From NCBI GenBank assembly GCA_945861645.1, contig CAMAVZ010000009.1, positions 1-62,532 of the forward strand: DNA of 62,532 bases, written 5' to 3'. Made by a program: the position numbers and the translations under genes. How positions within the stretch are numbered: position 1 is the first letter of the stretch; every line of letters starts with the position of its first letter. Positions 25,416 through 62,532 of the stretch are shown here, piece after piece. Under the pieces are notes generated by a model. It did no database searches. It worked only from the letters and a program-made list of their open reading frames with translations, and was not told the DNA's origin. The DNA is from Opitutus sp. GAS368 (GTDB lineage: Bacteria; Verrucomicrobiota; Verrucomicrobiia; Opitutales; Opitutaceae).

Positions 25416-25432
25416 CAGAAAAAAAGGTGCCC

Positions 25433-26434: not shown

Positions 26435-26475
26435 GAGAACGGCGCAGGAATCGCGTTAAGGCGGGCCCGAATTCA

Positions 26476-28803: not shown

Positions 28804-28804
28804 C

Positions 28805-29788
28805 TCAAGGAATCGTGAGGCGCGTTACGCCCGCTTCACCGACGGCCACAATCGCCCCGTCATTAGTCTCGACCAAATCAGCCACACTCGTGCCAAAGTC
28901 AGCAGGTTGCCAGGCTTGGAAGCTGCGGCCGGCATCACGACTGATAAAAAAATTTCCTCCTTGCCCGCCTAACACCAGCGGCCCGCGCTGAAGGCGAAGG
29001 CCGCCCATAATGAGAACTTTGACGTCAGTCGTCAGCGGCACCCAATGTTCGCCTTGATCATCGGAGCGAAAAATATGACCGCGTAGACCGTAGGTGATAA
29101 TTTTCTGCGCCGTCAGCGGCAAGACGCCAAAAAGGGAACCGTCATAAGGAACTTCCAATTTTCGCCAAGTCTCGCCCGTGTCAGCCGAAAGCAGGCATGA
29201 GCCGCTTTCACCCGCGAGGTAAAGTGTGCCATCGGGCCCAACGCTCATTCGATTATAATGCGCCTCCTCCGTGGTGGGATGGCCACTCTGCCAATGGAGG
29301 CCTCCGTCGATCGTAAAGGCGTATTTTCCGTAAGCGCCAACCGCAAAACCGCGCTGGGCGTTCAGAAATAAAACACTGAGGTAAATTGTAGCAAGTTGTT
29401 GGCCATCATCCTGTCGTTGCCAGGTTTTACCGCTATCGCGCGTTGCAATTATAACTCCATCGTGGCCGACGGCCCAGCCATGTTGGGCATCGGGAAAACT
29501 GACGCTGGTCAGCAGCGCGCGGGTCGGCGTGACTTGCTGGGTCCAATGGCGCCCGTGGTCAGACGAAATCAAAACATGCCCGTGATCACCAACCGCCACG
29601 AGTTGTTGGCCGGTATTTACGATGCTCAGTAATAAGCTCCGATCCGCCAAGGGAGCTAATGCCGCCGAGTCTGAGGCGTGAGCCATCGGCAGAAAAATAA
29701 GCACGCAGGATACCCGCCACCGGCGGGAGAATTTATTTAAGGACCGGAGGCGATTAAGTTGCCGTTGCGCCAACATTAGCATGATCAC
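28805..29788 (-). CDS. YCF48-related BNR/Asp-box beta-propeller protein
   Basis: Repeated SxDxGxxW boxes (SSDHGRHW, TRDSGKTW, SADTGETW, SDDQGEHW, SRDAGRSF), AVGDHG, GWAVGHDG. Start uncertain. Confidence 0.88.
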   Translation of the reverse strand: MIMLMLAQRQLNRLRSLNKFSRRWRVSCVLIFLPMAHASDSAALAPLADRSLLLSIVNTGQQLVAVGDHGHVLISSDHGRHWTQQVTPTRALLTSVSFPDAQHGWAVGHDGVIIATRDSGKTWQRQDDGQQLATIYLSVLFLNAQRGFAVGAYGKYAFTIDGGLHWQSGHPTTEEAHYNRMSVGPDGTLYLAGESGSCLLSADTGETWRKLEVPYDGSLFGVLPLTAQKIITYGLRGHIFRSDDQGEHWVPLTTDVKVLIMGGLRLQRGPLVLGGQGGNFFISRDAGRSFQAWQPADFGTSVADLVETNDGAIVAVGEAGVTRLTIP

Positions 29789-29826
29789 TTAAATAAATAT
29801 TTCATAATAGCTGAGCGGCAGGCAAG

Positions 29827-29854
29827 AAAAAGGGCGGCCGGTTGAGGGCCGCCC
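29827..29854 (-). terminator. Intra-operon terminator-like hairpin after the DUF1329 gene
   Basis: Minus strand GGGCGGCC-CTCAACC-GGCCGCCC-TTTTT. Confidence 0.7.
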
Positions 29855-29871
29855 GCAGAGGCTGAATGGCG

Positions 29872-31230
29872 TTAGCGCACGCCATCCTGCCGCAAGGTTG
29901 CCGGAGTGTAGTCCTGCGGCGCGCGGGTGAGGCCAAAATTATACATCTTAGCTTCGTTATCCAGGCCGATGGCCACATAACGACCTGCGATCAAATCGGT
30001 ATGCACCTCGAGCGTGCTCCAGAAAACTTGGGCTTCATAGTAATTGATGCAATGGGCCTCCGAGACGCGCCAGAGTTGGCCGCGGCCATCATATTGATCA
30101 ACGGCGAGCACCTGCCAGCTATCCTCGTCGATATAGAACGTGCGCTGGGCGTAAACGTGGCTGGTCCCCGCTTTCAGCGTGGCGTTAACCACCCAAACCC
30201 GGTGTTTCTCGTAGCGCGTAAGGCTTTGATTGATGTGTAGCGGCTTGAGGATGTCGCTATATTTGATCGAAGCGCTATGCAGCTTATAGGAGTTGTAGGG
30301 CACGATCATTTCTTTTTTGCCGACCAATTTCCAATCGTAGCGATCCGGTGCTCCATTGAACATATCGAATTGGTCGGAAGTGCGCATGCCGTCCGCGGCA
30401 GTGCCGGGATTGTCGTAAGAGACATTAGGCGCACGGCGCACGCGCCGTTGGCCGGAATTATAAAGCCAAGCCCGGCGTGATTCCTTCACTTGGTCGATGG
30501 TCTCGTGCACAACTAAGATTGAACCAGCGAGCCGAGCTGGAGCCATTACAGCCTGCTTGAAGTAGATTAAAACATTATCGAGGTCCTTCTCCTGCATGCC
30601 TTCGCGGGCATAATTGAAAAGAAACTCATCTTCGAAATCGACCAAGGTGTAACTGCCATTGCGCTGCGGTGCCGCTTGGCTAACAGTGCGATTGGCGGCC
30701 ACTCCGCGGTAGCGGGTGAGATGATTCCAAATCACCTCGAGCCCGTTCTGTGGTACTGGGAATGGGGTGCCGATAGTTGAACCCGAGATACCGTTGCCCC
30801 CTTCGGTGAGTGCGGCGGCGGGCGCATTTTGCTTGGTCGCATCGTAAATCCGCTGCGGATTAGAGCCGCTGCGATGCGACGGGTAAACGGGCATCGAGTA
30901 ATCCGAGTAGGCCTTCAGCAAAGCTAAATGCCCCGCGCTTAGTTCCGCCGTATATTTATCCGCATTGGCCGCGGTAATCGTGAATAACGGGGCTTCGTCC
31001 TTGTACGGGTCGGGATGATGCATTCCCACGGTGTAGCCAGCCGGAGGGGTGGTGATGCCGCCGGTCCAAGCCGGAATTGAGCCGTCGGCATTACCGGCCT
31101 TTTCACCGCCCAGCGGAGTGAGGTCGTTGCCGAGTCGGTTCGCGTCGCCCACGGAAATAGCGGCGAGAGCGCCCAGAGTAAGGGAGAGGAGGGTGCTGCT
31201 CGCGATCAAGTAACGGATTCCAGATTTCAT
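29872..31230 (-). CDS. DUF1329 family periplasmic protein (AupB-like)
   Basis: Signal peptide; LTPLGGEKAGNADGSIPAWTGG, PFPVPQNGLEVIWNH, AWLYNSGQRRVRRAP, YDWKLVGKKE, FYIDEDSW. Confidence 0.92.
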   Translation of the reverse strand: MKSGIRYLIASSTLLSLTLGALAAISVGDANRLGNDLTPLGGEKAGNADGSIPAWTGGITTPPAGYTVGMHHPDPYKDEAPLFTITAANADKYTAELSAGHLALLKAYSDYSMPVYPSHRSGSNPQRIYDATKQNAPAAALTEGGNGISGSTIGTPFPVPQNGLEVIWNHLTRYRGVAANRTVSQAAPQRNGSYTLVDFEDEFLFNYAREGMQEKDLDNVLIYFKQAVMAPARLAGSILVVHETIDQVKESRRAWLYNSGQRRVRRAPNVSYDNPGTAADGMRTSDQFDMFNGAPDRYDWKLVGKKEMIVPYNSYKLHSASIKYSDILKPLHINQSLTRYEKHRVWVVNATLKAGTSHVYAQRTFYIDEDSWQVLAVDQYDGRGQLWRVSEAHCINYYEAQVFWSTLEVHTDLIAGRYVAIGLDNEAKMYNFGLTRAPQDYTPATLRQDGVR

Positions 31231-31249
31231 GATAGTGGGGTGGGTAAAA

Positions 31250-33232
31250 TTAGAATGAATACTTCAAGTTGCAGGAGACGAAATCACGATCGCTGATGAG
31301 ATTATAGCGATCGGCACCAAAGAAATTAATATAACGCAGATCGAACGCCCAAGCATTTTGGAAGGTAAACTCTGCGCCGATGGTAAGCGATTTCCGCCCG
31401 TGCAGGAAATTGCCCAAGGGTAAGGGCGTGTTCCCGCCCACATCGTGAGCGTAGATCACGGTCGGGGAAATATTAACCCCGCGGAAGACGTTATTGTAAT
31501 CAAGGCGACCAACTAATTGATAACCCCAAGAAAAGCTGTCCGCGAAAGCCGAGGCAGGCTCAGACAAGGGAGCGATGTTCGAAGCATTATTGCCGGAATT
31601 AGTCATGTAGTTCACATCGCCACCCACCATCGTACCGGGACCATCAAAACGTAAGACGTTCTTGCTCGGGAGATCGGCGTTGACGAAGCCGGTCTCAGCC
31701 AAAAGGGTCGTCTGGGCTGAGCCGAGGATGCCTTTACCCACCCAAGTGGCGGTCATCTGCCCCGTCGTTACTTTGAGGCGGCGATAGCCGGGGACGTAGG
31801 TATTCAGCTTACCCAAGAAATTACCGATTTGATTATTGGTGCCAAAAGCAGGGTTAATTGAGGAGAATGCGGCGAAAAGTAATTCGACGTCATCAACCTG
31901 TAGCGGCTGACTTTTCCGGTAGCTGATTTCACCCTGCAGGGCGATGCCGTGCACACTTGTGTTGAAGCTGGCTCCAACTAAGCCGATGTCTTCGGGGAAT
32001 TCGATCAAGTAGCGGCCGGTACCTGCGGCAGTCAGGAAGCCGATGGTCCTAGCTCCATTTGCAATCGTGATCGTGGAGGGATAAAATGCCGCGTAAGGCG
32101 CTAATGATGGAGCCAAGGAGCCAACCGGAACACTGGTCAGAGCAGAACCCACCAGTCCGGGTAAAATGGCCGAGACGGTGGCAGCAGGAATTCCCGCTGC
32201 AATCATGGCCGGGGCCAGATTCGCGCTCGCCAAGCTGCTCGCGGTTGCTTGCACCAAGGCTGAACTGATCGCAGCACTCGGGGTGCGCGCTGAAATGACC
32301 GGCAGGCGACTGTGATAATTCATGGCGAACAAGCCGAATTCCGTGTCCTTCAACCCGCGCGCTAGCCAGCGAAGATTGACCCCGTATTGCCCGGAGAAAC
32401 CAGGCTCATTGTCGGTCCCACGGGGTACTGCGCCAAGATTAGCGGTGTCGGCGATGGCACCGAATCCGAGCATGACCTTAGTGCCGCCTTTGGGCGCAAA
32501 GTCGTTCGAACTAAAATATGTACCAGGAGGATCAATGCGGGTGCGATCCCAGCCGAGGAGGTAAAAAGCTTCTAACGACAAATCTTCGTTTAGACCTAAG
32601 GCGGCAGAAACCATGTTAACCGGACGAAGCGCTTCTTTAAGCTCTGAGCCGGGCGTGCGGAGTTTCGCCACATCAATTGGGTTGATGGAGTTGATCCCGT
32701 TGGGAATAAAGGTGCTTTCACCCCAGCTCAATACTTGGCGACCCACGCGAAGGGTGGCGGGCATTTCGCCAATCGTCTCCTTGAAATAAACGTAGGCATC
32801 GAGTAATTCCGCTCCGGTACTGACGATTTTATTGGCCTCATCGCTGAGCGCAGTCCGATCGCGGGCGCCGTTGGAATTTACTAAGTCATTGAAATAATAG
32901 CCGCGGACGAACAGCCCGGCGTGCTGATACTTAATAAGGAGATCGTGACTCGCCTTCATGAGGAAGGAGGCGACTCCACTGTTCCGGTAGTTCAAATTGC
33001 CATCGTCGTTGTTGTTCGAGCGCTGAAGACCACCGGAACCGAGCCCGTAGAACTGCGGATCGGCGGGATTAACGCGGTAAAGCCCGCCCACTGAAAGCGT
33101 GGTGTCAAAGTTGCCTTTGACGTCACCCAATTCAAAAACAAAGGCTTGGGCGCACGGCGCTTGGGCCAACAAAGCCAAACCGGCGATAGCCGATAGGCGC
33201 AGACAAGAAGAGACAGCTTTGCTTAGGTTCAT
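31250..33232 (-). CDS. DUF1302 family outer-membrane protein (AupA-like)
   Basis: Signal peptide; NNDDGNLNY, ELLDAYV, GRQVLSWGESTFI..GIN, NYHSRLP; C-terminal DRDFVSCNLKYSF beta-barrel signature. Confidence 0.92.
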   Translation of the reverse strand: MNLSKAVSSCLRLSAIAGLALLAQAPCAQAFVFELGDVKGNFDTTLSVGGLYRVNPADPQFYGLGSGGLQRSNNNDDGNLNYRNSGVASFLMKASHDLLIKYQHAGLFVRGYYFNDLVNSNGARDRTALSDEANKIVSTGAELLDAYVYFKETIGEMPATLRVGRQVLSWGESTFIPNGINSINPIDVAKLRTPGSELKEALRPVNMVSAALGLNEDLSLEAFYLLGWDRTRIDPPGTYFSSNDFAPKGGTKVMLGFGAIADTANLGAVPRGTDNEPGFSGQYGVNLRWLARGLKDTEFGLFAMNYHSRLPVISARTPSAAISSALVQATASSLASANLAPAMIAAGIPAATVSAILPGLVGSALTSVPVGSLAPSLAPYAAFYPSTITIANGARTIGFLTAAGTGRYLIEFPEDIGLVGASFNTSVHGIALQGEISYRKSQPLQVDDVELLFAAFSSINPAFGTNNQIGNFLGKLNTYVPGYRRLKVTTGQMTATWVGKGILGSAQTTLLAETGFVNADLPSKNVLRFDGPGTMVGGDVNYMTNSGNNASNIAPLSEPASAFADSFSWGYQLVGRLDYNNVFRGVNISPTVIYAHDVGGNTPLPLGNFLHGRKSLTIGAEFTFQNAWAFDLRYINFFGADRYNLISDRDFVSCNLKYSF

Positions 33233-45127: not shown

Positions 45128-45248
45128 CTCGCCAGCTTGCAGGGTTGAGATATTTTTTCAGTCAGCTGGCAACGCAAGAATTATTTACGTTTAGCTGATA
45201 TTGACCCCCCGACGCGTTTTCGTCCAAAATAGCCCCACGACGTTTATC

Positions 45249-45899
45249 ATGGGAACAATTCTCCAAACTCCGGATCAAAAAGATTCTGCACCCATGACAG
45301 ATAAAGTCCAAGAAGTAGCTTTGGATCGGCTGTTGGTCGACCGCTTTAGAGGCGGCGATGCCGGGGCGTTTGAACAGTTAGTAACTCGCTATTGGGATCG
45401 CATCTATGGAATGGTGCATCAACTGCTGCGCAATCAACAGGATGCCGAGGAGGTCACCCAGGACGCTTTTATTCGCGCCCACCGCGGATTAGTTAACTTT
45501 CGCGGAGACTCGGCCTTTTCGACTTGGCTCTATCAAATCGCGACAAATTTAGCGCGCAACCGCTATTGGTACTGGTGGCGCCGGAAACGCGATAAATCGA
45601 TTTCCTTTGATGCGCCGATGAGCGGGGACAATGACACCACGCTAGCCGAACTGATCCCCGCGGAACAAGAAACCCCGGAGGATGCTACGGTTACTCAAGA
45701 ATTTGTTAATCGGATCGCCGAGTGCATGGACAAACTCAACGAAAAGCATCGCGAGATTCTCATCCTGCGCAATGTTCGCAACCTCGCCTACGAGGAAATC
45801 GCGGAAATTCTCGGCATTAGCGTCGGCACCGTTAAAAGCCGAATCGCGCGAGCCCGGGAAAGTTTGCGCGAACAATTAGGAGAAGAATTCACCCAATGA
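45249..45899 (+). CDS. ECF (sigma-70 group 4) RNA polymerase sigma factor
   Basis: DAEEVTQDAF, FRGDSAFSTWLYQIATN, YEEIAEILGISVGTVKSRIARAR. Alternative start at 45294. Confidence 0.93.
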   Translation: MGTILQTPDQKDSAPMTDKVQEVALDRLLVDRFRGGDAGAFEQLVTRYWDRIYGMVHQLLRNQQDAEEVTQDAFIRAHRGLVNFRGDSAFSTWLYQIATNLARNRYWYWWRRKRDKSISFDAPMSGDNDTTLAELIPAEQETPEDATVTQEFVNRIAECMDKLNEKHREILILRNVRNLAYEEIAEILGISVGTVKSRIARARESLREQLGEEFTQ

Positions 45900-46555
45900 A
45901 AGACCATCGTTTTATTGAACTCGTAAATTTGTATATCGACCGGCAGATCACCGCCGCCGAAACCGCTGAGCTGGAGGCCGAAATACAAGGGCACCCCCGT
46001 CACCGCGCCATCTACCAGCAATATTGCCAAATCCACCGCGCCACAATGGATATTGGAGAAGGTTTTCGTCCGCAAGCTGCCGGCCAATCAACTCAAACTA
46101 CCTTTACCAATAGCCAGTCCGTCCAACGTGCGCGCGAACAGCGTCAGCGGCGCGTTCGCTGGGGCTATTATGCCAGCGGCCTAGCTGCTGCCGCGTGTTT
46201 CGGCTTAATTTTCGTACGCCTAAATTCAAAACCAGCCGGTGTGATCGAGGGGCTCGCAACTGCGCCGGCTTTAATCGCCCGACCCGCGATCACCCCACGA
46301 GCCGTCGAGTCGGTTGTGGTGCCGGTGATCCCAACTATGGCTCAGTCTATTTATGGCGCGAACGAAGCGCCCGCGCGGCCAATGCAACGTTCACTGCTGA
46401 GCCGCCAAAGTGAATCAATCCAGTACCCATCGCTATTTGCGGACGAGGTTTTCAACCCAAAGCAAAGCGGACCGTTGAGCAACTCACGGACTTTTCGCGG
46501 ACTGCCTACCCCTAATCAGCAGCTCGAGTTTACGGCTTTTCAGTTTCAGCGCTAG
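45896..46555 (+). CDS. Putative membrane anti-sigma factor
   Basis: ATGA overlap with the sigma gene; N-terminal ELVNLYIDRQI...ELE anti-sigma-domain-like helix, single TM (GLAAAACFGLIFV), extracytoplasmic tail. Confidence 0.7.
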   Translation: MKDHRFIELVNLYIDRQITAAETAELEAEIQGHPRHRAIYQQYCQIHRATMDIGEGFRPQAAGQSTQTTFTNSQSVQRAREQRQRRVRWGYYASGLAAAACFGLIFVRLNSKPAGVIEGLATAPALIARPAITPRAVESVVVPVIPTMAQSIYGANEAPARPMQRSLLSRQSESIQYPSLFADEVFNPKQSGPLSNSRTFRGLPTPNQQLEFTAFQFQR

Positions 46556-48871: not shown

Positions 48872-49966
48872 ATGAGTATCACGATTCACACTGAAATTGT
48901 TAACGATCTGCTCAAATTAGCGGTCGAGAGCGGTGCCAGTGACATCATTATCAAAGCGGACAAGTCGGGTTATCTACGCATCGGTGGGCGGTTGCGGCCG
49001 GTCGAAATGGAACCCATTTCAGCGGATCACGCGCAAGCCTTCGTCGACGAAAAAGTGCCGCCGGTTTTCAAGGAACGCTGGGCGCAAGAAGGGCAGGTGG
49101 ACTTTGCCTACGCGACCGACGGCATTGGTCGTTTTCGCGTCAACGCCTTCCATCAACGCGGACTCGTGAGTATAGTCTTTCGCCACATAAAAGATCGGCC
49201 GCCCACTTTTGCGGAATTAAATATTGAGTCGGATACTTTGACTAAAATGGCCTCCGCCAAGGACGGGATCTTGCTGATCTGCGGCGCGACAGGCTCGGGC
49301 AAAAGTTCCACTATGGCGGCGATGCTCAACTGGATAAACCAAAACTTGGACAAGCATATCGTCACCATCGAAGATCCGATAGAATACACCTTTAAGGATG
49401 AAAAATCACTTTTCCAGCAGCGGGAAATTGGCCTCGATGTGCCCAGTTTCGATTTAGCGATTAAATCAGTCCTTCGCCAAAATCCTGACATTATATTGAT
49501 TGGGGAAATGCGCGATAAAGAAACCTTTGAAACGGCAATTTCCGCAGCCGAAACGGGCCATTTAGTAATCTCGACGATGCATGCCTCGACGGTAAAACAA
49601 GCACTGACCCGTTTGTTTGAATTTTTCCCACCGGAGCAGATTGAACAGGCGCGGCGCCAAATAGCCGGTTCCCTGCGCGGTTTTGTATGTCAGAAATTAA
49701 TTCCCGCGATCGAGGGAGGCGGGCGCTTCGCCGCCCATGAAATCCTGATTGCTGACGCCATGGTCAGCAACCTAATCCTTGATGGGAAAAATGAAAAAAT
49801 CCAACAAATGCTCGAAACCAACAGCGATGCCGGCTCAAAAGCATTCAATAAAGATATTTATCGCCTGATCAAAGAGGGGAAAATCAGCAAGGCCGATGGC
49901 TTGCGCTTCTCCCCGAATCCCCAAGCTCTCGAAATGAACCTTAAAGGAATTTTCTTTAAGAGCTGA
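48872..49966 (+). CDS. PilT/PilU family type IV pilus ATPase
   Basis: RFRVNAF, GATGSGKSST, TIEDPIE, LRQNPDIILIGEMRD, AETGHLV. Confidence 0.92.
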   Translation: MSITIHTEIVNDLLKLAVESGASDIIIKADKSGYLRIGGRLRPVEMEPISADHAQAFVDEKVPPVFKERWAQEGQVDFAYATDGIGRFRVNAFHQRGLVSIVFRHIKDRPPTFAELNIESDTLTKMASAKDGILLICGATGSGKSSTMAAMLNWINQNLDKHIVTIEDPIEYTFKDEKSLFQQREIGLDVPSFDLAIKSVLRQNPDIILIGEMRDKETFETAISAAETGHLVISTMHASTVKQALTRLFEFFPPEQIEQARRQIAGSLRGFVCQKLIPAIEGGGRFAAHEILIADAMVSNLILDGKNEKIQQMLETNSDAGSKAFNKDIYRLIKEGKISKADGLRFSPNPQALEMNLKGIFFKS

Positions 49967-50868
49967 TGAAATATCGCGCCAGGGCAGTTGTATTGGCCTG
50001 CGGAATCGTAATCGCGAGAGCCGCAGCGACGCCTGGGCCCGCACTCGAAAATTCCCAACGCGAACTTAAGGAGCTCCAGGCTGAGGTTAAAGCGAAACCG
50101 AGCATACCCGCCAATTCCGAGCTAACGCAAGGCTTCGCCCAATTACCCACCGCCGGCGCCCCACCAGCCCCGCTTAAACCAGCAGTATCGGAGCGAACCG
50201 CCCAAGAATTGAAAAAAAGAAAGACCGTCGACAAAAATTGGCTGATCAACGGGGTCAATGCATTGGCGCGAGCAGCGTCGGCCGAGACGGTCGCCGGCGA
50301 TGGAGCGAGCAATTCGCTGCAGACAGCAAAAGACTCGGTGCCAGCACAGACTGCCGCCCAGAATTTATTGAAGGTTTATAGTGCTCAGCGCTCAGCCGAG
50401 CCCACTCAGGCGGTGAGTAAACATGCGACCATAGCTTCACGCGATCCCCTAGCGCCATTTTTGCAGGGCTGGCTTGCGGACTCGCCGGTTCGCGGCCTAT
50501 TTTTTGATGATTATGTTAAGAAAATAAATACAGAGGGAGCCGCGGTCTCCAGTGCACACGGTTCCCCCACGGCGCAATCTGGCGAGCTTCGATCGACGCG
50601 CGCTTCGACGAGCGCAGGCTTCCATAGCCCCCGACCGACCGAAGCTAATCCCTATCTCGCGCCGACCAAGGAATTGGTACTGCAAAACCGAGGAACGACG
50701 ATTGATTCGCCCCGCTTGACCAGCACGGTCGGTGATTCCTTCAGCCAGGCGCTCGCTACCGGACCGACCGCAGCAGCGCTGGGAGGGCCGCAACCCAGCG
50801 GAAAAGCCTCCACGCGACTCGCGCCTTCCGACGCTCAGAAATACTTCCCGCAGCAGAGGAAATTTTAG
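49966..50868 (+). CDS. Hypothetical exported low-complexity protein
   Basis: TGATG overlap with the pilT/U-like gene; signal-like N-terminus; Ala/Pro/Ser/Thr-rich with short motifs KNWLI, NPYL, KYFPQQRKF. Confidence 0.7.
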   Translation: MKYRARAVVLACGIVIARAAATPGPALENSQRELKELQAEVKAKPSIPANSELTQGFAQLPTAGAPPAPLKPAVSERTAQELKKRKTVDKNWLINGVNALARAASAETVAGDGASNSLQTAKDSVPAQTAAQNLLKVYSAQRSAEPTQAVSKHATIASRDPLAPFLQGWLADSPVRGLFFDDYVKKINTEGAAVSSAHGSPTAQSGELRSTRASTSAGFHSPRPTEANPYLAPTKELVLQNRGTTIDSPRLTSTVGDSFSQALATGPTAAALGGPQPSGKASTRLAPSDAQKYFPQQRKF

Positions 50869-50913
50869 GGCTTGGTTTTTAGGCAGTGGACCGGTTTAAC
50901 CGACCTTTCATCT

Positions 50914-51819
50914 ATGCCACACGCGCTTATTTTTGCTGGGCAAGGCGCCCAAAAAGTTGGAATGGGGCAGTCCCTTTACGACGGCTCAGCTGCCGCACGG
51001 GCGATCTACGATGAAGCTAACCAGATCTTGGGGTGGGATTTAGCCCAGATCAGCTTTAATGGCCCTGAAGCAGAATTGACCCAAACTAAAATCTGCCAGC
51101 CCGCGCTTTTCGTGCATGGACTCGCCGTTCACGCAGTTTTGCGTGAAAGAGGGTTATTGCCTGAAGTTAAATTCGCGATGGGTCTGAGTCTCGGCGAAGT
51201 CACTGCCTTGACCGCCGCCGGAGTGTTCAATTTTTCCACAGGGCTTAAGATCGTCGCCGAACGAGGGCGCCTTATGCAGCAAGCTTGTGAGAAATCCGTG
51301 GGCGGCATGGCAGCCATCATCGGCGAAGAACGGGCCAAAGTGAGTGAGCTTTGCCAAGCATTCGACCTCGAGGCGGCTAATTTTAATGCCCCCGGCCAGA
51401 TTATTGTTTCCGGCGAAAAAGCCCAAGTGGATGCACTCGTCGCAGCCGCCAAGGAACGCGGGCTAAAACGTGTGATGCCCCTGAACGTGGCGGGAGCTTA
51501 TCACAGCCGCTTAATGGAACCAGCTCGCGCGGAATTTCAGACTTATCTCGCCGGCGTGACTTTTCAGCGTCCTACTTGTGCCGTGCTGACTAATACCACC
51601 GGCCAAGTTGTTGCTGAGCCCGAGGCGATTCGGGCTGCCTTGGTCAAACAAATTGTTTCTTCGGTGCTTTGGGAGGACTGCATGCGCCATTGCGTCGCCT
51701 TGGGCGCGACTGAATTTATTGAATGCGGGCCGGGCGCAGTGCTCGCGGGACTCGCGCGCCGCACTGAGAAAAATTGGCTGGTTAAAAGCTTTGCCGAATT
51801 AACTGACCTCCCTGCTTAA
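50914..51819 (+). CDS. fabD: Malonyl-CoA:ACP transacylase
   Basis: FAGQGAQKVGMG, QPALF, GLSLGE, NAPGQ, VAGAYHS, ECGPG. Confidence 0.95.
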   Translation: MPHALIFAGQGAQKVGMGQSLYDGSAAARAIYDEANQILGWDLAQISFNGPEAELTQTKICQPALFVHGLAVHAVLRERGLLPEVKFAMGLSLGEVTALTAAGVFNFSTGLKIVAERGRLMQQACEKSVGGMAAIIGEERAKVSELCQAFDLEAANFNAPGQIIVSGEKAQVDALVAAAKERGLKRVMPLNVAGAYHSRLMEPARAEFQTYLAGVTFQRPTCAVLTNTTGQVVAEPEAIRAALVKQIVSSVLWEDCMRHCVALGATEFIECGPGAVLAGLARRTEKNWLVKSFAELTDLPA

Positions 51820-55056: not shown

Positions 55057-55992
55057 TCACCTTAATCCAAGAAAGCGCTCTATCTCCTGCAGACAATACG
55101 GCCCAGCATCTTCCAAGATATAGTGACCAGCCTCTGCAAGATAATCAGCTTCCGCGCTCGGTAACAGTACCCGCCAGCGGTTATAGTAATGATAATTAAA
55201 GCAGAAATCTTTAGCGCCCCAAAGTATCCGTACGGGTTTATCGCGCAGTAGCTGTAATTGAGATTCGATGATTTGCAGAGCGCCAGCACTGGGATGGTGC
55301 TGACCAGTGGGAATATCCTGCACAAATCGATGCGTCGCGATTCGATTATGCCAATTATTATAAGGATAGAGATAGCCACGTTTTACCATACGGTTCAGAG
55401 GTTGAGTAACTGCCATCCACGTGGCCGGCCAAGCAAAGGCATTAAAAGTACGCACAAGCCATTCCCCTAGCCTGGGCAATCGACAAAGGCGGATGCGCCA
55501 CGGCACGACCGTATCGGCAAAAGCCGCGGTGTTGAGAATAATGACCCGACCGAGTTGTTCTGGTTTGAGCAGGCCGGTACCGAGTCCGATAGGACCACCC
55601 CAATCGTGCACAATCAGGTGGATTTTTTGTAGATTTAAATGATCAAGTAACGCACGGAGATTTTTAATGTGCTCGGCTAAAGCATAATTAAAATTCTGCG
55701 GTTTATCTGATAATCCGCAGCCAAGGTGATCTGGCACGATGCAGCGAATTTTACCGCGCAGCCCGAGCACGACATTTCGATAATAGAACGACCAAGTCGG
55801 ATTGCCGTGCACCATCACGACGGCTTCATCACCTTCGCCTTCGTCCAGATAACTTAACTCGCCGCGACCGGTAGCAAAACGTTTAGGTTCAAAAGGGTAA
55901 AGTTGCTGCAGCCATGGCGGCCTCGGCGCGGTTGTTCTAAGCGCCTCATGGGGTGATTTGCGGTCGCACTGGGGATTGACGGTATTCACCAT
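55057..55992 (-). CDS. oleB: OleB-like beta-lactone decarboxylase (haloalkane dehalogenase-like alpha/beta hydrolase)
   Basis: HGNPTWSFYYR, PDHLGCGLSDKP, HDWGG, NTAAF, AGHYILED; directly downstream of oleA. Confidence 0.8.
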   Translation of the reverse strand: MVNTVNPQCDRKSPHEALRTTAPRPPWLQQLYPFEPKRFATGRGELSYLDEGEGDEAVVMVHGNPTWSFYYRNVVLGLRGKIRCIVPDHLGCGLSDKPQNFNYALAEHIKNLRALLDHLNLQKIHLIVHDWGGPIGLGTGLLKPEQLGRVIILNTAAFADTVVPWRIRLCRLPRLGEWLVRTFNAFAWPATWMAVTQPLNRMVKRGYLYPYNNWHNRIATHRFVQDIPTGQHHPSAGALQIIESQLQLLRDKPVRILWGAKDFCFNYHYYNRWRVLLPSAEADYLAEAGHYILEDAGPYCLQEIERFLGLR

Positions 55993-57020
55993 TCGACCCC
56001 CAGCATCAAACTGTTGATGCCGCTGCCAATACCGAGTAGGGCTACTTTATCACCCGCTTTAATCGCGCCTTGCGCTGCGGCTAAAGCCAAGGCGGTCGGG
56101 AGAGCCGCTGAGCCCGTGTTCCCGAGCGTCTCGAATGTGGAGAAATCTTTAGCTAAATCGAGGTCGAGTCTTTCGAATAATTTTTTCCGATGGGTCTGGC
56201 CAACTTGGTGACAGATAATCCGATCAGGCGTGGAGCGATTCCAGCCCGTTTCCTTTGCAAAAAGCTGCCAGGTGTCATGCGCTACTTCCACCCCCGCGAG
56301 CAATAATTGCTCCGAGTCGGTCTGCATGGCCAGACCATCGCCCGCGGTGTCCCCTTGGCAAAGTGCGCTATGTTGCGTCGCGGCTAAATAAGCGCCCGCC
56401 AGAAGGCGATGCTTCGGACCCGTAGGTAAAAGATCTTCATGGCAGACAATGGCGCCCACGGCGCCGGAGCCGATGGTCAGATTAGCGAAAAATGGTTTGA
56501 TCGCATTTCGATCCAGCGACGCCGTTAATAAACGGTCTAGCGTCTGCTCAACCAAGGGGCGGCCATTCTCCCCTGCCACAACGAGCCCGCAGCGGATGTG
56601 TCCGGCCTCGACCATCGCCCCGAGCGTGACCAGGCCGTTGAGGAAACCTAGGCAGGCATTAGATAAATCAAAAATTTGCGTGTGCGCCCCAAGCCCAATT
56701 TTATGATGAGCAAAAGCGGCCGTCGCCGGTTCGAGCATATCGCGGGAGACGGCACAGTGGATGAAGGCTTCAATGTGGGCCGACTTAAATTGCGATTGCG
56801 CGAGGACGGCGCGGCCAGCTTGCGCGCTAGCCTCAGACGGCCGGGTACCCGCTGGCCACATCCGCCGCTCTTTGATCCCCGTCATCAGCTCAAGCCGACC
56901 GGCGGGTAATTTTAAACGCTCATAAAGTGGCTGCAGGCGGGCTTCGATCTGGTGGGAGGTCCAGATTTCATCGGGCAGCACGGCCACCAACGATTCAATA
57001 CAAGCGTGACGAAAATGCAT
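55986..57020 (-). CDS. oleA: OleA-like head-to-head acyl condensing thiolase (KAS III fold)
   Basis: GIKERRMW, SRDMLEPATA (OleA Glu), NACLGFLNG (Cys), FANLTIGSG, HQVG (His), GNTGSA (Asn), GIGSGIN. Confidence 0.85.
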   Translation of the reverse strand: MHFRHACIESLVAVLPDEIWTSHQIEARLQPLYERLKLPAGRLELMTGIKERRMWPAGTRPSEASAQAGRAVLAQSQFKSAHIEAFIHCAVSRDMLEPATAAFAHHKIGLGAHTQIFDLSNACLGFLNGLVTLGAMVEAGHIRCGLVVAGENGRPLVEQTLDRLLTASLDRNAIKPFFANLTIGSGAVGAIVCHEDLLPTGPKHRLLAGAYLAATQHSALCQGDTAGDGLAMQTDSEQLLLAGVEVAHDTWQLFAKETGWNRSTPDRIICHQVGQTHRKKLFERLDLDLAKDFSTFETLGNTGSAALPTALALAAAQGAIKAGDKVALLGIGSGINSLMLGVEW

Positions 57021-57026
57021 GGGCGC

Positions 57027-57839
57027 TTATTGATCAGGCCGCATCGCTAAGCGGATGATATCTTTGTCAAAGAAATTTGCCCCTAAACCGGCATCGACCA
57101 CCAGGGTCGTCGCATTGCATCCACTGCTGCGCTCGCTCAGAAGAAAAACCGCGGCGTTTGCCACTTCCTGCGTAGCTAAGTTGCGCTTCCGGAAAGTTAA
57201 TTTTTCCGCATACAGGTAACTTTCGACATAGCCAGGAATACCGGCCGACGCACTGGTTTTAAGCGGGCCGGCGCCGACCACATTAAAGCGAACCTCGGTA
57301 TCAGCGCTAAACGATTTGGCTAGGAAACGACTGCAAGATTCTAAAGCGGCTTTGATCGGGCCCATGTAGCCATAGTTATCGGGCGTCACTTCCAGTGAAG
57401 AAATCCCAATGGTTACGACCGAAGCGTTGCGGGCCAACCGCGGTTTGAGTGCTTGAGCCAATTCGACAAGAGAAAAAGCCGAGATAGCGTTGGCCTGCAA
57501 AAAATCCTTCCGCTTCGTTTCGTGAAAAGCTTTAAACCCTGCGCTATAATTAGCGAAGGCGATGGAGTGGACGACCCCTTGGAGTGGGGCGATCCCCGCG
57601 GCTTGCAACTCTAGCGCCAAACGATCGCAAGCGCCTTCCCCCTCAACATCACAAATAAAAACCGCGCGATCAGCTAAGAGCGCCGCGAGTGACTCTTTGC
57701 GCGCCGAGGATCGAACACTGTAGACAACCCGAGCCCCCTGCTCTTCTAAGGTTTTAGCTATTTGCCAAGCGACGCTTTTCTTGTTGGCGACGCCCATCAC
57801 TAAGAAAGTTTTCCCGGCCAGCTGGAGAAAATCACTCAT
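57027..57839 (-). CDS. FabI-like enoyl-ACP reductase (SDR)
   Basis: [47 protein letters not shown]. Confidence 0.85.
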
Positions 57840-58288
57840 GCTGATCCCTCAGGAGTTTTCCAAGCGACGGCGAAATCAACGCTCAAGACGCGCTTAGTCC
57901 CGTTTTTGATATTGCCGGACATCATATAAAATCCGCCGGCTATTTCCTTAATCAACACTTCAATGGTGGTAATATCTCCCGGATAGACGAGACTACGAAA
58001 GCGGACATTTGCCACTTTAGCCAAGAGCGGTACCCCCGGGGGTTTGCCTTGCCCCGCAAATTTAGTCGCCAGCAGTAAGGCGCCCGCTTGGAAGACTGAT
58101 TCGCAAAGTAAAACCCCGGGCGTGATGGGTGCGCCCGGATAATGCCCTTGATAAAAAGCTTCGTCTGCACGCCAGGTGCGCTGGGCAGTGAGCGTATCAG
58201 CGGCCTGGCTAATAATTTCGTCCACGAATAAAAAAGGCGGACGATGGGGAATGAGCTGAGTAACGGTCGGCACGGGATAATTAAGCAA
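57836..58288 (-). CDS. FabZ-like 3-hydroxyacyl-ACP dehydratase
   Basis: [40 protein letters not shown]. Start may be the GTG at 58273. Confidence 0.88.
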
Positions 58289-59738
58289 CGGTTGTTAGAG
58301 CGGCGGGGGCGCGCTTCATGGCCACTAAAAATTTATCAATTTGATTGGACACGATTACACCATAATTAATGGTCCCCAACCAGCCCGACATGATAATCCC
58401 AACGGACCCGGCGTGATAAAGTCCGCGGAGCTGAGCCGGCAAATCCATGGAGATTTTGAGGCCTTCGAATTTAGTACCGAACGATGTGCCGGCCCAATGC
58501 CGCGTGTAGTACTCGATCGTCCGCGGCGTAGCGGCTTCTTGCCAATCGATTTTAGCGCGCACGTCGGGAATATAACGTTCGAGCGCGGTAATTGATTCGT
58601 CGATCAAGCGTTGTTTTTCCGTCGCGTAGCCTTCGGGGGATAAATTATTCCAATCTTCGTAACGAGCATTGATTGATACCACCACGGTGTAGCGGTCGAG
58701 GCCCGGCCGAGTATCAGGATAATACATCGAAAAAGTGCGACTGGTCGTGTGCAGATCGACGAGCTTTTCGCTCGAGAAGGTCGGTTCGTCGGAAGTGAAA
58801 ACCAGATCGCCAATATGGGGCAAAGTCTCCCCTTTTCTAATGCCCAGATAAACTTGGCAAGAACTGCTATTAACGCGCACCGCTTTGGCGGCGGCGACAA
58901 ATTCTGGAGTGAAATTCTCCTCCCCAGCCAACCGGAGCACCGTGTTCTTGATATTTGCGTTGGAGAGTACCGCCCGGCACCGAATCGTGCGGCCATTGGC
59001 CACGACCCCCACCACCTGGTTGGTCCCACCCTGCGCGGTCGTCAGGATTTTTTCCACGGTCACATGTTTGCGAATCTCCACGCCATTTTGCTTAAGTTCG
59101 GCCGTCATTTTCCGAATGAGCACATCGGAGCCCCCCTGAAAAGTATAGACGCCTTTGCTCATGAAATTTGAGAAAACGATGCCAAAGGTAATCGCGGGGT
59201 CGGCCAGCGTCGAGCCATTGGCGTACGCGATGGGTTCCATTAACAATCGCTGCACATCGGGCCGCCCAGGGAAGTAGCGTTCAAACATTTGCCCAGTGGT
59301 CTCAGGATTATTATCGTAAAAATTCATTCCCCGCAGATCGGTAAAAAACTGCTCTACCGTTTCAGCGGTGACCTTAAATTTTTCGACCAACTGCCGAGTA
59401 AAATCCTCCCGATCGAAGGTCGTATCCAGGGTGAATTGCGGATTAATAAACCGCACTCTTTTTAATTGCACAATCGACTGGGCGATATCCTGGCTCCAAT
59501 ATTTGCGGATCGATTTGATCATGCCGATGGGGAACCCGTGCAGCGAGATATCGAAAATATGCCCACCCTTGCGCGTGAACCATGTGGCTAAACCACCCAG
59601 TTGATAATGATGCTCCAGCAGTAGCACTTTGTGGCCGCATTTGGCCAATACATTAGCGCTGGTGAGGCCACCCAAGCCGCTGCCTATCACCACGATGTCG
59701 TAGTGATCTTCAATTCCTTTAAGCCAGTCGTAAGCCAT
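58281..59738 (-). CDS. Phytoene dehydrogenase-family FAD oxidoreductase
   Basis: [42 protein letters not shown]. Confidence 0.88.
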
Positions 59739-59786
59739 ACGAAGATCAATTAAATTCCGCTCCCACCAAAGCGCAACGCGGAAAAA

Positions 59787-61211
59787 TTAACCTCGGGTCG
59801 ACCCTTGCAGTACGTGATAATTGGCCATCGAAATACCGCTGAGCATGGCTCCAACAATGCCTAAAAAACCTTGATCAGTACCGCACAAGTAAAGATTCGA
59901 CAAGTGAGTCCGGCCGTCACGAATTTTTCGGGGTGAGCCGTAGATGGCGCCGTTGAGGTGACCGGTGAACTTTTTAATTGTGCGAGGAGTAAACATATCG
60001 GTGGCGAGTTGCGCTGCGGCCAGCAGCTCCGGCGCCACGACTGGCAAGAACCGCTGGGCGCTGCGGACTACCTCAGGAAACCAGCGCTGCTTGTCTGCTT
60101 GATAAATCTCCTCTGGCAATTGCGCCCAACGAGCATAATTCGCCAGACAGGTTACGCGAAAAATTCCCTCCGACAAATTACGCCCAGCGTAATCGAAATT
60201 ATTGGGAAAACAAATAACCCCACTGCGTAGATCAACCTGCTCGCGCGCATGAACGTACTCGAAACGCTCCGCGTCATTGAAAAATATAATGGTATCATCG
60301 CCCCACCCCCACTCCGCGGGTTGACGCCGAAACACACTGATCGTTTCGACGAATGATAAATTTCCGGTATTTGCTTCGGCTGCTCGCGTCTGCGGTGGCA
60401 CGCAGAGGTTCATCGTCTCCGCAAAACCAACCGAGGAGATCACTTGGTGCGCAGTAATTTCTTCGCCATTATCCAGGACGAGCTGAGCCGCCCGCCCCTG
60501 TACTTCTTTAATCTGAGCCACCCCGCATTGCATGCGACGTTCCCCGCCTGCCTGCCGGAATTTATCGAGTAACACTCGTAAAATAACGCGCACCCCGTCT
60601 AACGGTCGCGCGAAACCTTCGAGATAGAGCGCCTTGAACATAATGACGAATTGGCCGAAATCCATGTCGCGCTCTTCGGCGCTCCCATAATACATCACCG
60701 GGCAGAAAATCATGTCAGTGAGCAGCGGATCCGTAAGATGGCGGCTGACTACCTCGCGAGCCGACCGCGGTTGGGCGTCAAGCGCGACATCATCATACGT
60801 TCGCACCAACTGAACCAAGGCACGCCAACCGGCGGCTTGGGCTGGGAATTTTTCAACCACTTCGGCGTCTAAGACAGCGAATTCATTCGTGAATTTCAGC
60901 GCACAGTCACGAAAAGCGATGCGGGATTGTTTTTGCGGACAGAGCGCAAACTCATCGCGGTCAATGCGCAGTTGCCGCAGCAATTTACTTAATGGGGTCC
61001 CTTTCACCCCTGGCGATACGTAGTTAGTCAGCGCATGCAGACCGACGTCATACTTGCGGCCCGCAAAACTATAAAAACTATTCAGCCCGCCAGCGGCATT
61101 GTGCCGCTCAAAGATACAGACTTTTTTGCCAAAGTGGGCCAAACGAATGCCCGCCGCCAAGCCGGACATCCCGGCGCCAATAATGGCCACATCATAATGA
61201 GAATCTTTCAC
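59787..61211 (-). CDS. Phytoene dehydrogenase-family FAD oxidoreductase (second paralog)
   Basis: YDVAIIGAGMSGL, FERHNAAGGLN, YDVGLH, FTPRT..FTGHLNGAIYG, NLYLCGTDQGFLGIVGAMLSG. Confidence 0.88.
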   Translation of the reverse strand: MKDSHYDVAIIGAGMSGLAAGIRLAHFGKKVCIFERHNAAGGLNSFYSFAGRKYDVGLHALTNYVSPGVKGTPLSKLLRQLRIDRDEFALCPQKQSRIAFRDCALKFTNEFAVLDAEVVEKFPAQAAGWRALVQLVRTYDDVALDAQPRSAREVVSRHLTDPLLTDMIFCPVMYYGSAEERDMDFGQFVIMFKALYLEGFARPLDGVRVILRVLLDKFRQAGGERRMQCGVAQIKEVQGRAAQLVLDNGEEITAHQVISSVGFAETMNLCVPPQTRAAEANTGNLSFVETISVFRRQPAEWGWGDDTIIFFNDAERFEYVHAREQVDLRSGVICFPNNFDYAGRNLSEGIFRVTCLANYARWAQLPEEIYQADKQRWFPEVVRSAQRFLPVVAPELLAAAQLATDMFTPRTIKKFTGHLNGAIYGSPRKIRDGRTHLSNLYLCGTDQGFLGIVGAMLSGISMANYHVLQGSTRG

Positions 61212-61257
61212 TTCAGGTGGGGCGGCGATTCATTCGGATGTGCCGTGACTCGCGGCT

Positions 61258-61303
61258 AAATAAAAAATCGGGTCGGCTCGCCCCAAGAACGGCCCTACCC
61301 GAT
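61258..61303 (-). terminator. Terminator-like hairpin downstream of the ACP gene
   Basis: Minus strand ATCGGGT...ACCCGAT stem followed by TTTTTATTT. Confidence 0.5.
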
Positions 61304-61328
61304 GGCTGGTTCAAGACGCTGAATCGAC

Positions 61329-61583
61329 TCAAGCCTTCGTTGGAAATTTCGGCGTCAAGTATTCGGCGCAGCTCTCCAATGAGGCCAAATGACTGTAATC
61401 GGCTTCTGGCACTTCGATGCCATGGCGCTTGCGGAGTTCCATCACAATATCGAGAAAATCCATGGAATCGAGCTGCAGTTGATCGCGCAGGCGAATCTCA
61501 GGTTTGATGGCACTGAGATCTTCGTCCGGTGCGATGTCGGCGATGATGTCGATCACTAGCTTCTGGCAGTCTTCTTTCGTCAT
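61329..61583 (-). CDS. Acyl carrier protein
   Basis: 84 aa, acidic, LQLDSMDFLDIV phosphopantetheine motif. Confidence 0.93.
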   Translation of the reverse strand: MTKEDCQKLVIDIIADIAPDEDLSAIKPEIRLRDQLQLDSMDFLDIVMELRKRHGIEVPEADYSHLASLESCAEYLTPKFPTKA

Positions 61584-61596
61584 GGGTAGAGGCGGA

Positions 61597-62532
61597 TTAA
61601 GCGACGAAGCGTTTGATAATCAACGTTGAATTAATGCCCAGCATGCCGAAAGAATTATTAAGAATGACATCCACCCGCGTCGCTTTTTTTGGCTGATTAA
61701 TAACTAAACCGGGTATATTACACAGATAATCAAGGTTATCCACGTTTATTGTTGGGTGGATAATCAGATCATCAAAACTCGGTAAATTACCGGCCAATTC
61801 CAACGCCCCGGCGGCCCCCATCGTGTGGCCGATAAATCCCTTGGTGTTGTTGATATGCGGCGGACTGCTGCGGCCTTTAAAAACCTCGGCGATGGCAACG
61901 CACTCCTGGATATCGCCCTGCGGGGTTGAGGTAGCGTGCGTATTTATCAAATCGATGTCCTCAATGGTCATGCCCGCATTGGCAATCGCCTTACGGACAC
62001 ATTCAGCCTGACGCTCGGGATTGGGGAGAACGTAATCGGTGGCGTCGGAGTTAACATGATAACCGGCAATTTCGCCGTAAATTTTGGCGCCGCGAGCTTG
62101 GGCATCCTCGAGTCGCTCGATGGTATAAATGCAGCCGCCCTCAGATATCACGATGCCGTTGCGGGCTTCGTCAAAGGGACGACTGGCTTTCTTGGGGTCC
62201 TCATGGGCAGCCAAGGCATTTTGACTTTTGAAGCCCGCGAAAATGCCGAAGGTTTGCGGGCTTTCGCTGACTCCTCCGGCCAACGCAAAATCCACTTCCC
62301 CCAAACGCAGCATTTGGGCGGCGTGAATCAGCCCCATATTGCCGGCCGCGCAGGCCGCCCCGATGGTGTAAGCTGGTCCGGTAATGCCTAAATTCAGAGA
62401 GACTTCACCCGCGGCATTATTCGCCACGGTGCGAGGGTTATGATGATGCGACCAGAACTTCGTGTCGTATTTAAATTGTGAAATATTATAGACTTCATTC
62501 TCGGTCTCCACGTTACCGTGCTCAGTGACGCC
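61597..62532 (-). CDS. FabF-like beta-ketoacyl-ACP synthase (5'-truncated by window)
   Basis: Frame is open to the window end (GVTEHGNVETENE). AACAAG (Cys), HATST (His), GHTMGAAG (His), NSFGMLGIN. Confidence 0.92.
   Translation of the reverse strand, partial: GVTEHGNVETENEVYNISQFKYDTKFWSHHHNPRTVANNAAGEVSLNLGITGPAYTIGAACAAGNMGLIHAAQMLRLGEVDFALAGGVSESPQTFGIFAGFKSQNALAAHEDPKKASRPFDEARNGIVISEGGCIYTIERLEDAQARGAKIYGEIAGYHVNSDATDYVLPNPERQAECVRKAIANAGMTIEDIDLINTHATSTPQGDIQECVAIAEVFKGRSSPPHINNTKGFIGHTMGAAGALELAGNLPSFDDLIIHPTINVDNLDYLCNIPGLVINQPKKATRVDVILNNSFGMLGINSTLIIKRFVA

Follow-up and report, generated by a model that had tools for sequence, protein, structure and literature searches.

We analyzed a 62,532-bp stretch of DNA from Opitutus sp. 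GAS368 (Opitutaceae, Opitutales, Verrucomicrobiota), hereafter the window, which is the whole of contig C9 (CAMAVZ010000009.1) of a metagenome-assembled genome (MAG; GCA_945861645.1) of 2.30 Mb in 116 contigs that is 84% complete. Its end carries an operon in which genes resembling those of type II fatty acid synthesis (FASII) and two genes for phytoene-dehydrogenase-like flavoproteins, crtI1 and crtI2, are joined to the olefin genes oleA and oleB. The original prediction, made from the letters of the window, had placed eight tightly packed minus-strand genes here, and all eight open reading frames (ORFs) were recovered with the expected families. They occupy positions 55057-62532, all on the minus strand, with spacing that ranges from 8-nt overlaps to a 117-nt gap. 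Searches with Pfam and NCBIfam gave a transcription order of ketosynthase (KS), acyl carrier protein (ACP), crtI1, crtI2, FabZ-like dehydratase (DH), FabI-like enoyl reductase (ER), oleA and oleB, as follows.

61597-62532, minus strand: KS, FabF-like ketosynthase of the module; 311 C-terminal residues of a 412-aa protein whose first 101 aa are encoded on contig C102
61329-61583, minus strand: ACP, dedicated acyl carrier protein, 84 aa
59787-61211, minus strand: crtI1, very divergent CrtI-fold flavoprotein, 474 aa
58281-59738, minus strand: crtI2, CrtI/CRTISO-like flavoprotein, 485 aa
57836-58288, minus strand: FabZ-like 3-hydroxyacyl-ACP dehydratase, 150 aa
57027-57839, minus strand: FabI-like enoyl-ACP reductase, accessory copy, 270 aa
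55986-57020, minus strand: oleA, head-to-head condensing thiolase, 344 aa
55057-55992, minus strand: oleB, OleB-type alpha/beta hydrolase, 311 aa, with a 7-nt overlap with oleA and translationally coupled to it

The last 149 bases of the window (62384-62532) were identical to C102:1-149, and since the ends overlap in this way, inside the KS gene, the two contigs are neighbours. The KS frame continued on C102 to an ATG, which gave a protein of 412 aa, and the next gene was a divergent galE-like gene; the operon therefore contains exactly eight genes. The other flank is a convergent lepB-lepA-fabD-pilT group, and the entire context was preserved in close relatives. Homologues at 83-89% identity came from Oleiharenicola, Lacunisphaera and Opitutae MAGs. 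A promoter and terminator scan of the operon gave counts that were not above those of shuffled sequences (3 vs 6.8; 13 vs 10.5). Parts of the operon were matched at 95-99% identity by metatranscriptome contigs of four studies. Contigs of 3461 and 3273 nt from one RNA run bridged oleB to crtI2 and crtI1 to beyond the KS, and a contig from a close relative's RNA library (95-99% identical) extended ~1.1 kb beyond the window end. These matches are a weak hint that the operon is transcribed; the runs consist of contigs only, in which DNA may be present in RNA libraries, neither strand nor level can be read, and uncovered bins or depths are uninformative.

The catalytic set of a dissociated fatty acid synthase (FAS) was found in the operon, and the residues that had been described earlier as intact in the KS, ACP, FabZ-like, FabI-like, OleA and OleB proteins were in place, by alignment or, for the ACP serine, in the translation. 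The KS had both the N and C ketoacyl-synt domains and matched the fabF model TIGR03150 at 255.8 bits as a partial protein; its catalytic Cys lies in GAACAAGN and its two His residues in NTHATST and GHTMGA. Its segments TEHGNVETENE and WSHHHNPR, which the original prediction had singled out as atypical, proved to be a family signature (TEHGxVETENE and WxHHHNPR) that was also conserved in the module KS at four loci of other lineages and was absent, by alignment, from the FabF and the third KS of the same genome. The module KS was 63-69% identical to the KS of Pirellulales, Chloroflexota and Desulfobulbia loci. The ACP matched the PP-binding family PF00550 at 34.8 bits, fell under every ACP equivalog cut-off, and had the serine visible in a DSM motif. 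Comparison of the ACP and KS with the Protein Data Bank (PDB) gave no special likeness to anammox proteins, and the nearest match of the KS was ordinary FabF. The FabZ-like protein has the FabA fold (PF07977), scored 93.1 bits against the FabZ equivalog cut-off of 113, and had both His and Glu aligned. Its nearest solved sequences were 7qv0, 8ayc and 8ayb, at 71.5 bits vs 69.9 bits for canonical FabZ, a margin of 1.6; PMC10139942 gives these codes as the anammox dehydratase amxFabZ. By our own count, the alignment places Ala at the position of the amx-specific tunnel residue Ile69. The FabI-like protein belongs to adh_short_C2, with a best FabI equivalog score of 168.9 bits against a cut-off of 370, and its Y-x6-K aligned to solved FabI.

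OleA scored 429.6 bits with NF006720 (cut-off 285). Its best solved matches, at E 1e-58, were 3fk5, 3row and 4kti, which we take to be Xanthomonas OleA (the PDB labels say 3-oxoacyl-ACP synthase III), and Cys, His and Asn were aligned in the 3fk5 alignment. OleB matched the alpha/beta hydrolase family PF00561 and, under their cut-offs, haloalkane-dehalogenase-like models, with no OleB-specific model among the matches; the Asp of HDWGG and the His of GHY were aligned. The remaining two genes of the pathway adjoin on contig C5, oleC at C5:18829-20514 (NF006754 at 624.5 bits, cut-off 478; OleC equivalog at 504.7 against a strict cut-off of 900) and oleD at C5:20469-21563 (OleD models the best matches, at 322.6 bits against a strict cut-off of 580). 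With this pair on C5 the Ole set is complete and is split into oleAB and oleCD. oleABCD has been described as typical of Opitutae MAGs (Cabello-Yeves et al. 2017).

We then located the housekeeping FASII genes. A fabD gene (TIGR00128 above cut-off) lies at 50872-51819 on the plus strand of the window, at a distance of 3.2 kb from the operon. It belongs to a pilT-unknown-fabD-lepA-lepB unit, for which synteny was seen in close relatives. This was the only fabD found via the acyltransferase region of the PfaA model, and it probably loads both ACPs. The unknown member of this unit, at 49966-50868 between pilT and fabD, is a 300-aa ORF without a family match that was 31-58% identical in close relatives. 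Contig C12 carries fabG-acpP-fabF, C52 carries fabH and C25 an lpxC-fabZ fusion. The housekeeping enoyl reductase was identified as FabV (C103:3694-3927), which is interrupted by the contig end and has a signature domain of ~130 bits; FabV was present and intact (about 400 aa) in 4/4 complete relatives tested, with a similar score of ~130 bits for this domain. FabK was also considered for this role and was rejected, with partial NMO matches of 20-40 bits in relatives and none in this genome. Neither this MAG nor any of five complete Opitutaceae genomes had a close paralogue of the FabI-like reductase; the next best match had 27-28% identity at E about 1e-8. The possibility that the FabI-like protein is the sole enoyl reductase, which would have made the cluster the primary FAS, was ruled out by FabV. 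Since second copies of acpP, fabF and fabZ as well as FabV occur elsewhere in the genome, the cluster is not the primary FAS, and its proposed accessory status was borne out. A third FAS-like set was noted on contig C27 at ~17.8-20.8 kb (L012:154-3141), with a 256-aa ACP-dehydratase fusion (PP-binding and FabA fold), a 419-aa ketosynthase and a 280-aa short-chain dehydrogenase/reductase (SDR); a FabA-fold gene equivalent to that of the fusion was present in four complete relatives. PfaA (TIGR02813), the marker of the Pfa synthase of polyunsaturated fatty acids (PUFAs), was not found over cut-off in this 84% complete MAG, in line with the expected absence of pfa; the best match, at 112 bits vs 1010, was FabD.

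The distribution of the cluster, hereafter the module, was determined in 503 genomes from three samples, which were searched with crtI2 as query and with the models for OleA and PfaA. Matches to PfaA at E <= 1e-120 were counted as PfaA-like.

Verrucomicrobiota (251 genomes): crtI2 in 66, OleA over cut-off in 65, both in 63; PfaA-like in 2/2 genomes with OleA without crtI2 and in 1/63 with crtI2 and OleA
Planctomycetia (151 genomes): crtI2 in 65, OleA over cut-off in 122, both in 65; PfaA-like in 55/57 with OleA without crtI2 and in 2/65 with crtI2 and OleA
Desulfobulbia (101 genomes): crtI2 in 82, OleA over cut-off in 81, both in 80; PfaA-like in 0/1 with OleA without crtI2 and in 10/80 with crtI2 and OleA
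Total (503 genomes): crtI2 in 213, OleA over cut-off in 268, both in 208; PfaA-like in 57/60 with OleA without crtI2 and in 13/208 with crtI2 and OleA

Among genomes with OleA, the module and Pfa were nearly mutually exclusive. PfaA above cut-off was found in none of the 63 Verrucomicrobiota genomes with module and OleA. Two genomes, G127 and G293, had OleA without crtI2; both belong to the three Verrucomicrobiota with PfaA over cut-off (1695 and 1617 bits), and pfaA lies ~7 kb from oleA in G127. The single PfaA-like match beside crtI2 and OleA, in G295, was a 607-bit polyketide synthase passing the E-value threshold. Verrucomicrobiota with crtI2 and no OleA match were G129, G251 and G274, all of family f3. 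Of the 55 PfaA-like matches in Planctomycetia with OleA and without crtI2, 37 were above cut-off; two genomes of this class had OleA with neither partner (G316 and G369), two had crtI2 with a PfaA-like protein (G307 and G384), and seven had a PfaA-like protein without OleA. In Desulfobulbia, G298 and G495 had crtI2 only and G545 OleA only, and all 10 PfaA-like matches, two of them above cut-off, were in genomes with crtI2 and OleA. Five module genomes of other phyla had no PfaA above cut-off. We treat these counts as a strong pattern and not as a statistic, because the sampled genomes are kin. The near-exclusive exchange with PfaA-like synthases (57/60 vs 13/208) suggests that the module does what Pfa does. 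We consider it reasonably probable that the operon encodes an accessory, ACP-bound synthase that takes the place of Pfa as the supplier of special chains to OleABCD; these chains are probably polyunsaturated, and the two flavoproteins would set their double bonds. The module is the leading candidate for the source of polyunsaturated hydrocarbons in ole bacteria that have no pfa.

The properties of the flavoproteins bear directly on this proposal. Both matched the Amino_oxidase and NAD_binding_8 families of Pfam, were 24% identical to each other, and did not reach the crtI_fam (TIGR02734) cut-off of 238.1, crtI2 scoring 81.1 bits and crtI1 55.8 bits. A crtI2 profile matched 4rep (6e-23) and 4dgk (6e-19) in the PDB, and the crtI1 sequence matched solved structures in the FAD Rossmann part only. 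AlphaFold2 (AF2) models of both were confident (pLDDT 89 for crtI1 and 85.9 for crtI2), and Foldseek returned 4rep, a gamma-carotenoid desaturase, as the best match for each (TM 0.74, E 1e-23), followed by CrtI, plant phytoene desaturase and amine oxidases; on these models, crtI1 and crtI2 have a CrtI-type FAD fold. With a profile of its own, crtI1 was found in exactly the 66 of 251 Verrucomicrobiota genomes that have crtI2, including those in which a long distance separates the two genes. The complete genome G111, of the sister family f3, retains crtI1, crtI2 and oleA at C1:1488599, 2265950 and 2782991, hundreds of kb from one another. The two genes are thus a strict, obligate pair. That they are normal enzymes of carotenoid or isoprenoid metabolism, located here by coincidence, is suggested by the family names only, and we regard it as highly improbable: the scores were far under every carotenoid equivalog cut-off, the cluster has no carotenoid genes, the flavoproteins co-occur strictly with each other and with OleA, and the anammox homologues kuste3336 and kuste3607 failed to replace CrtI (Javidpour et al. 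2016, PMC4790861).

A second alternative deserves more weight, although we still think it unlikely: the special chain made by the module may not be polyunsaturated and may, for example, have a defined length, be a monoene or be cis/trans-isomerised, with the flavoproteins acting as CRTISO/RetSat-like isomerases or saturases and the product an olefin with few double bonds. The CrtI family includes desaturases, redox-neutral isomerases and saturases. The best NCBIfam match of crtI2 was the carotenoid isomerase model carot_isom (104.7 bits vs a cut-off of 586.9), some homologues are labelled all-trans-retinol 13,14-reductase in the JGI database, and a FabI-like reductase implies many fully reduced cycles. 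No product was found for any Opitutaceae in the accessible literature. Set against a chain with few double bonds are the near-exclusive exchange with PfaA-like synthases, the C31:9 hydrocarbons that Sukovich and co-workers reportedly described in 2010 for an Opitutaceae strain and for Planctomyces maris, and the C31:8 and C31:9 hydrocarbons of Desulfotalea psychrophila, which has no pfa genes (Rattray et al. 2009, PMC2649909).

We next analyzed the spread of the module. crtI2 was present in 60/61 Opitutaceae genomes (60 genera) at 67-87% identity and in 49/49 other Opitutales, in no other family of the class and in few families elsewhere (251 Verrucomicrobiota genomes). The module is a core trait of the order Opitutales. 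Only 195 representative clusters among 1.84 billion proteins, many of them fragments, matched crtI2 at E <= 1e-30, and the family is therefore narrow. A crtI2 profile scan of species genomes identified at least 587 loci, from which the best 80 were fetched for synteny counts. These 80 came from Opitutales, Pirellulales and other Planctomycetota, Desulfobulbia, Chloroflexota/Dehalococcoidia and Lentisphaeria. All six core genes were present in 19/80 loci, KS-ACP-crtI1-crtI2 in 31/80, crtI2 followed by the FabZ-like dehydratase in 53/80, and at least one ole gene at >=35% identity in 37/80. crtI2 stood alone in 24/80 loci, and since seven of those had >=8 kb of sequence on each side, the module is dispersed in some lineages. 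The guess that the architecture is not unique to this genome was thus correct, as the core recurs with ole genes in Opitutales, Pirellulales, Desulfobulbia and Chloroflexota. The placement of the ole genes varied: in Opitutaceae oleA-oleB formed the 3' end, in Chloroflexota oleA was at the 5' end, in Planctomycetota oleD lay upstream, and in Desulfobulbia oleC-oleD lay ~8 kb downstream. The annotated loci of other phyla (L064, L071 and L088) carried a gene for a 246-aa FabG-type ketoreductase (KR) between crtI2 and the dehydratase. The order in L071, from Chloroflexota, was oleA-KS-ACP-crtI1-crtI2-KR-DH-ER-PPTase (phosphopantetheinyl transferase), and judged by its gene content this locus would be a nearly self-contained synthase attached to OleA. 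Two further features of these loci were noted. A gene for an Mrr-type restriction endonuclease lies between crtI2 and the KR at L088:11077-12039, in a MAG labelled Pseudomonadota, and L071:14175-17395, on the opposite strand after the module, encodes DUF362, condensation-domain and SRPBCC/polyketide-cyclase-like proteins.

The synteny bears on two further readings. It is conceivable that the module makes the unsaturated fatty acids of membrane phospholipids, as an anaerobic substitute for FabA/FabB, and that oleAB adjoin it by chance or for shared regulation. No FabA-type protein was found beyond three FabA-fold genes per genome, and some 16:1 and 18:1 isomers of D. psychrophila share the isotopic signature of its polyunsaturated hydrocarbons (PMC2649909). 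We hold this reading to be very unlikely: OleA was present in 208/213 module genomes, family f19 has crtI2 in 2/40 genomes and OleA in those same two, linkage to ole recurs in four lineages with differing gene orders, and the genome has membrane desaturases of its own. The other reading is that the flavoproteins act after OleABCD and, in the manner of CrtI with phytoene, desaturate within the membrane either the finished hydrocarbon or the ketone or lactone that precedes it, so that KS, ACP, DH and ER only build the chain. The characterised close structural relatives (4rep, 4dgk and 5mog) all act on long hydrophobic hydrocarbons. We nevertheless doubt it strongly. The sub-units KS-ACP-crtI1 and crtI2-(KR)-DH-ER stay whole where the module is split or inverted, including loci in which the halves are separated or divergent (L054, L076 and L028), and because these units persist, we favor flavoproteins working inside the elongation cycle. 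Moreover, the anammox clusters place homologous flavoproteins beside ACP, FabZ and FabF, and action after OleABCD leaves a private synthase that replaces Pfa unexplained.

For the accessory synthase that replaces Pfa, we propose the following scheme, in which the chemical steps, the passage of the chain from ACP to OleA and the final product are inferred from gene content, motifs and co-occurrence. The dedicated KS would elongate chains on the dedicated ACP, with malonyl loading and ketoreduction coming from housekeeping FabD and FabG, and some cycles would be completed by the FabZ-like dehydratase and the FabI-like reductase. The crtI1/crtI2 pair would set or move double bonds without O2, either by dehydrogenation or by FAD-dependent isomerisation of enoyl intermediates, a task that Pfa leaves to its FabA-type domains. 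OleA would then join two of the resulting chains, and OleD, OleC and OleB would finish a long olefin, probably a polyunsaturated one of the C31:9 or C31:8 type. More tentatively, and with considerable doubt, we suggest that the module is a new O2-independent route to methylene-interrupted polyenes bound to a carrier protein, in which the CrtI-fold pair, acting within the elongation cycle, replaces the isomerising FabA-type domains of Pfa, and that this same pair is the ancestral core of the anammox ladderane cluster. One flavoprotein might then convert trans-2 to cis-3 while its partner converts trans-2 to cis-2, or both might dehydrogenate the chain.

Several observations weigh against the accessory synthase. 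None of the eight genes encodes a KR, acyltransferase, PPTase, thioesterase or acyl-CoA ligase, and the transfer from ACP to OleA is unexplained. Since a ketoreductase and an acyltransferase are missing from the eight genes, the operon is not self-sufficient, and the earlier claim of a dedicated dissociated synthase needs correcting in this detail; the private KS, ACP, DH and ER with intact motifs stand. The module KRs of other phyla matched only the housekeeping FabG in this genome, at 39-44% identity, and we accordingly read the Opitutaceae operon as a reduced version of the module, dependent on borrowed FabG and FabD. Genes for membrane fatty-acid desaturases (PF00487) are also present in the genome, and the fold and sequence comparisons fit a desaturase, an isomerase and a saturase alike. 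We know of no CrtI-family enzyme that acts on acyl-ACP, a point that also favors action after OleABCD. The distribution is imperfect: 5/213 crtI2 genomes had no OleA match, 13/208 had both the module and a PfaA-like protein, and three OleA genomes had neither. The samples are made up of related genomes in which the independent events may be a handful, and the split in Planctomycetia probably follows a few orders. Finally, the anammox clusters gave no PUFAs or ladderanes in E. coli, where many proteins were poorly expressed (PMC4790861), and PUFAs were undetected in anammox bacteria (PMC10139942). The failed replacement of CrtI by the anammox homologues also weighs against the accessory synthase.

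The core idea, a FASII cluster with phytoene-dehydrogenase-like genes as a PUFA route, is not new and dates from Rattray et al. 2009. The module was present in 82/101 genomes of Desulfobulbia. D. psychrophila, a maker of C31:8 and C31:9 without pfa, belongs to this class. Desulfotalea was not named among the 120 homologues of Desulfobulbaceae crtI2 listed, which include Desulfocapsa, Desulfopila and Desulfosediminicola, and they gave no link by name to DP2405/DP2406. In Kuenenia stuttgartiensis and D. psychrophila, Rattray et al. 2009 (PMC2649909) described FASII clusters that each hold two or three genes of the phytoene-dehydrogenase type, in agreement with the KS/ACP/phytoene-dehydrogenase/FabZ clusters that the original prediction had mentioned for anammox bacteria and Desulfotalea. 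Those authors proposed a novel anaerobic PUFA route with decarboxylation of a C32 acid, which predates the knowledge of Ole. C31:9 in anaerobes has since been explained by pfa-like clusters beside ole (Shulse and Allen 2011, PMC3098273; Yoshida et al. 2016, PMC4882568), and the anammox phytoene dehydrogenase homologue is still without a shown function (Dietl et al. 2023; 2026 preprint 10.64898/2026.05.19.726425). Among the titles and abstracts found, with subscription papers outside the scope, none reported a tested function of the cassette or its exchange with Pfa.

Two other loci of the window were noted. Six genes at 24651-33232 on the minus strand encode DUF1302, DUF1329, BNR/YCF48-like, MMPL/RND-type transporter and DUF3108 proteins and an ORF without a family. 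To judge from the families, this set resembles a system that exports a hydrophobic compound; it lies at a distance of ~22 kb from the olefin operon. An Mmp-like membrane protein is mentioned for the clusters of Rattray et al. (PMC2649909). At 45201-46555, an extracytoplasmic function (ECF) sigma factor gene is followed by a 219-aa ORF without a family match, which may be an anti-sigma factor.

These results bear on how bacteria without pfa, strict anaerobes included, make hydrocarbons of the C31:9 type, a question that can be tested in cultivable, partly tractable Opitutaceae and Pirellulales, and on the role of phytoene-dehydrogenase-like flavoproteins in FAS-like clusters, the anammox ladderane candidates included. 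Because the module is a core trait of the order (49/49 other Opitutales genomes), its product is likely a major component of the membranes of bacteria that are abundant in fresh water and soil. If the tentative O2-independent route to polyenes were true, it would provide a long-sought function for the 'phytoene dehydrogenase' genes of the anammox clusters, and a small, dissociated gene set for polyenes, free of O2 and of a megasynthase, would be useful for engineering PUFAs or hydrocarbons.

Compared with known systems, the operon shares with the OleABCD pathways of Xanthomonas, Shewanella and Micrococcus an OleA above cut-off, and OleC and OleD in the genome, next to a dehalogenase-like hydrolase as the putative OleB; it differs in that oleAB stand at the end of an operon whose first genes are a private KS, an ACP and two flavoproteins. 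The Pfa-Ole systems (Shewanella and Photobacterium; Geobacter-type pfa-ole; Type I of Shulse and Allen) have the same proposed role, an ole partner that is often adjacent, and independence of O2. Unlike Pfa, the operon has no megasynthase, chain length factor (CLF), tandem ACPs or FabA-type DH domains, and has dissociated proteins and two CrtI-fold flavoproteins instead. The Kuenenia and Desulfotalea FASII clusters, likened here by their parts list, share an extra FabF, ACP and FabZ, flavoproteins of the amine-oxidase family and the absence of pfa. The operon lacks their further components, namely radical-SAM proteins, methyltransferases, a CoA ligase, a membrane protein and several FabF paralogues. 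Anammox Cluster I (amxACP, amxFabZ, FabF2/FabFmut, phytoene dehydrogenase (PDH) and B12 radical SAM) has in common a dedicated ACP, a dedicated FabZ and a phytoene-dehydrogenase homologue. The eight genes studied here, in contrast, include one KS, no KS/CLF-like pair and no B12 radical SAM; they encode a second flavoprotein and, in addition, an enoyl reductase and Ole proteins. The CrtI/CRTISO/CrtD family shares the FAD Rossmann motif and the overall fold with both flavoproteins, whereas these remain far below the family cut-off and their genomic context is fatty-acyl, not isoprenoid. What is new here is the counts of complementarity with Pfa, FabV as the housekeeping reductase, the strict pairing of crtI1 and crtI2, and the KR and PPTase content of the modules of other phyla.

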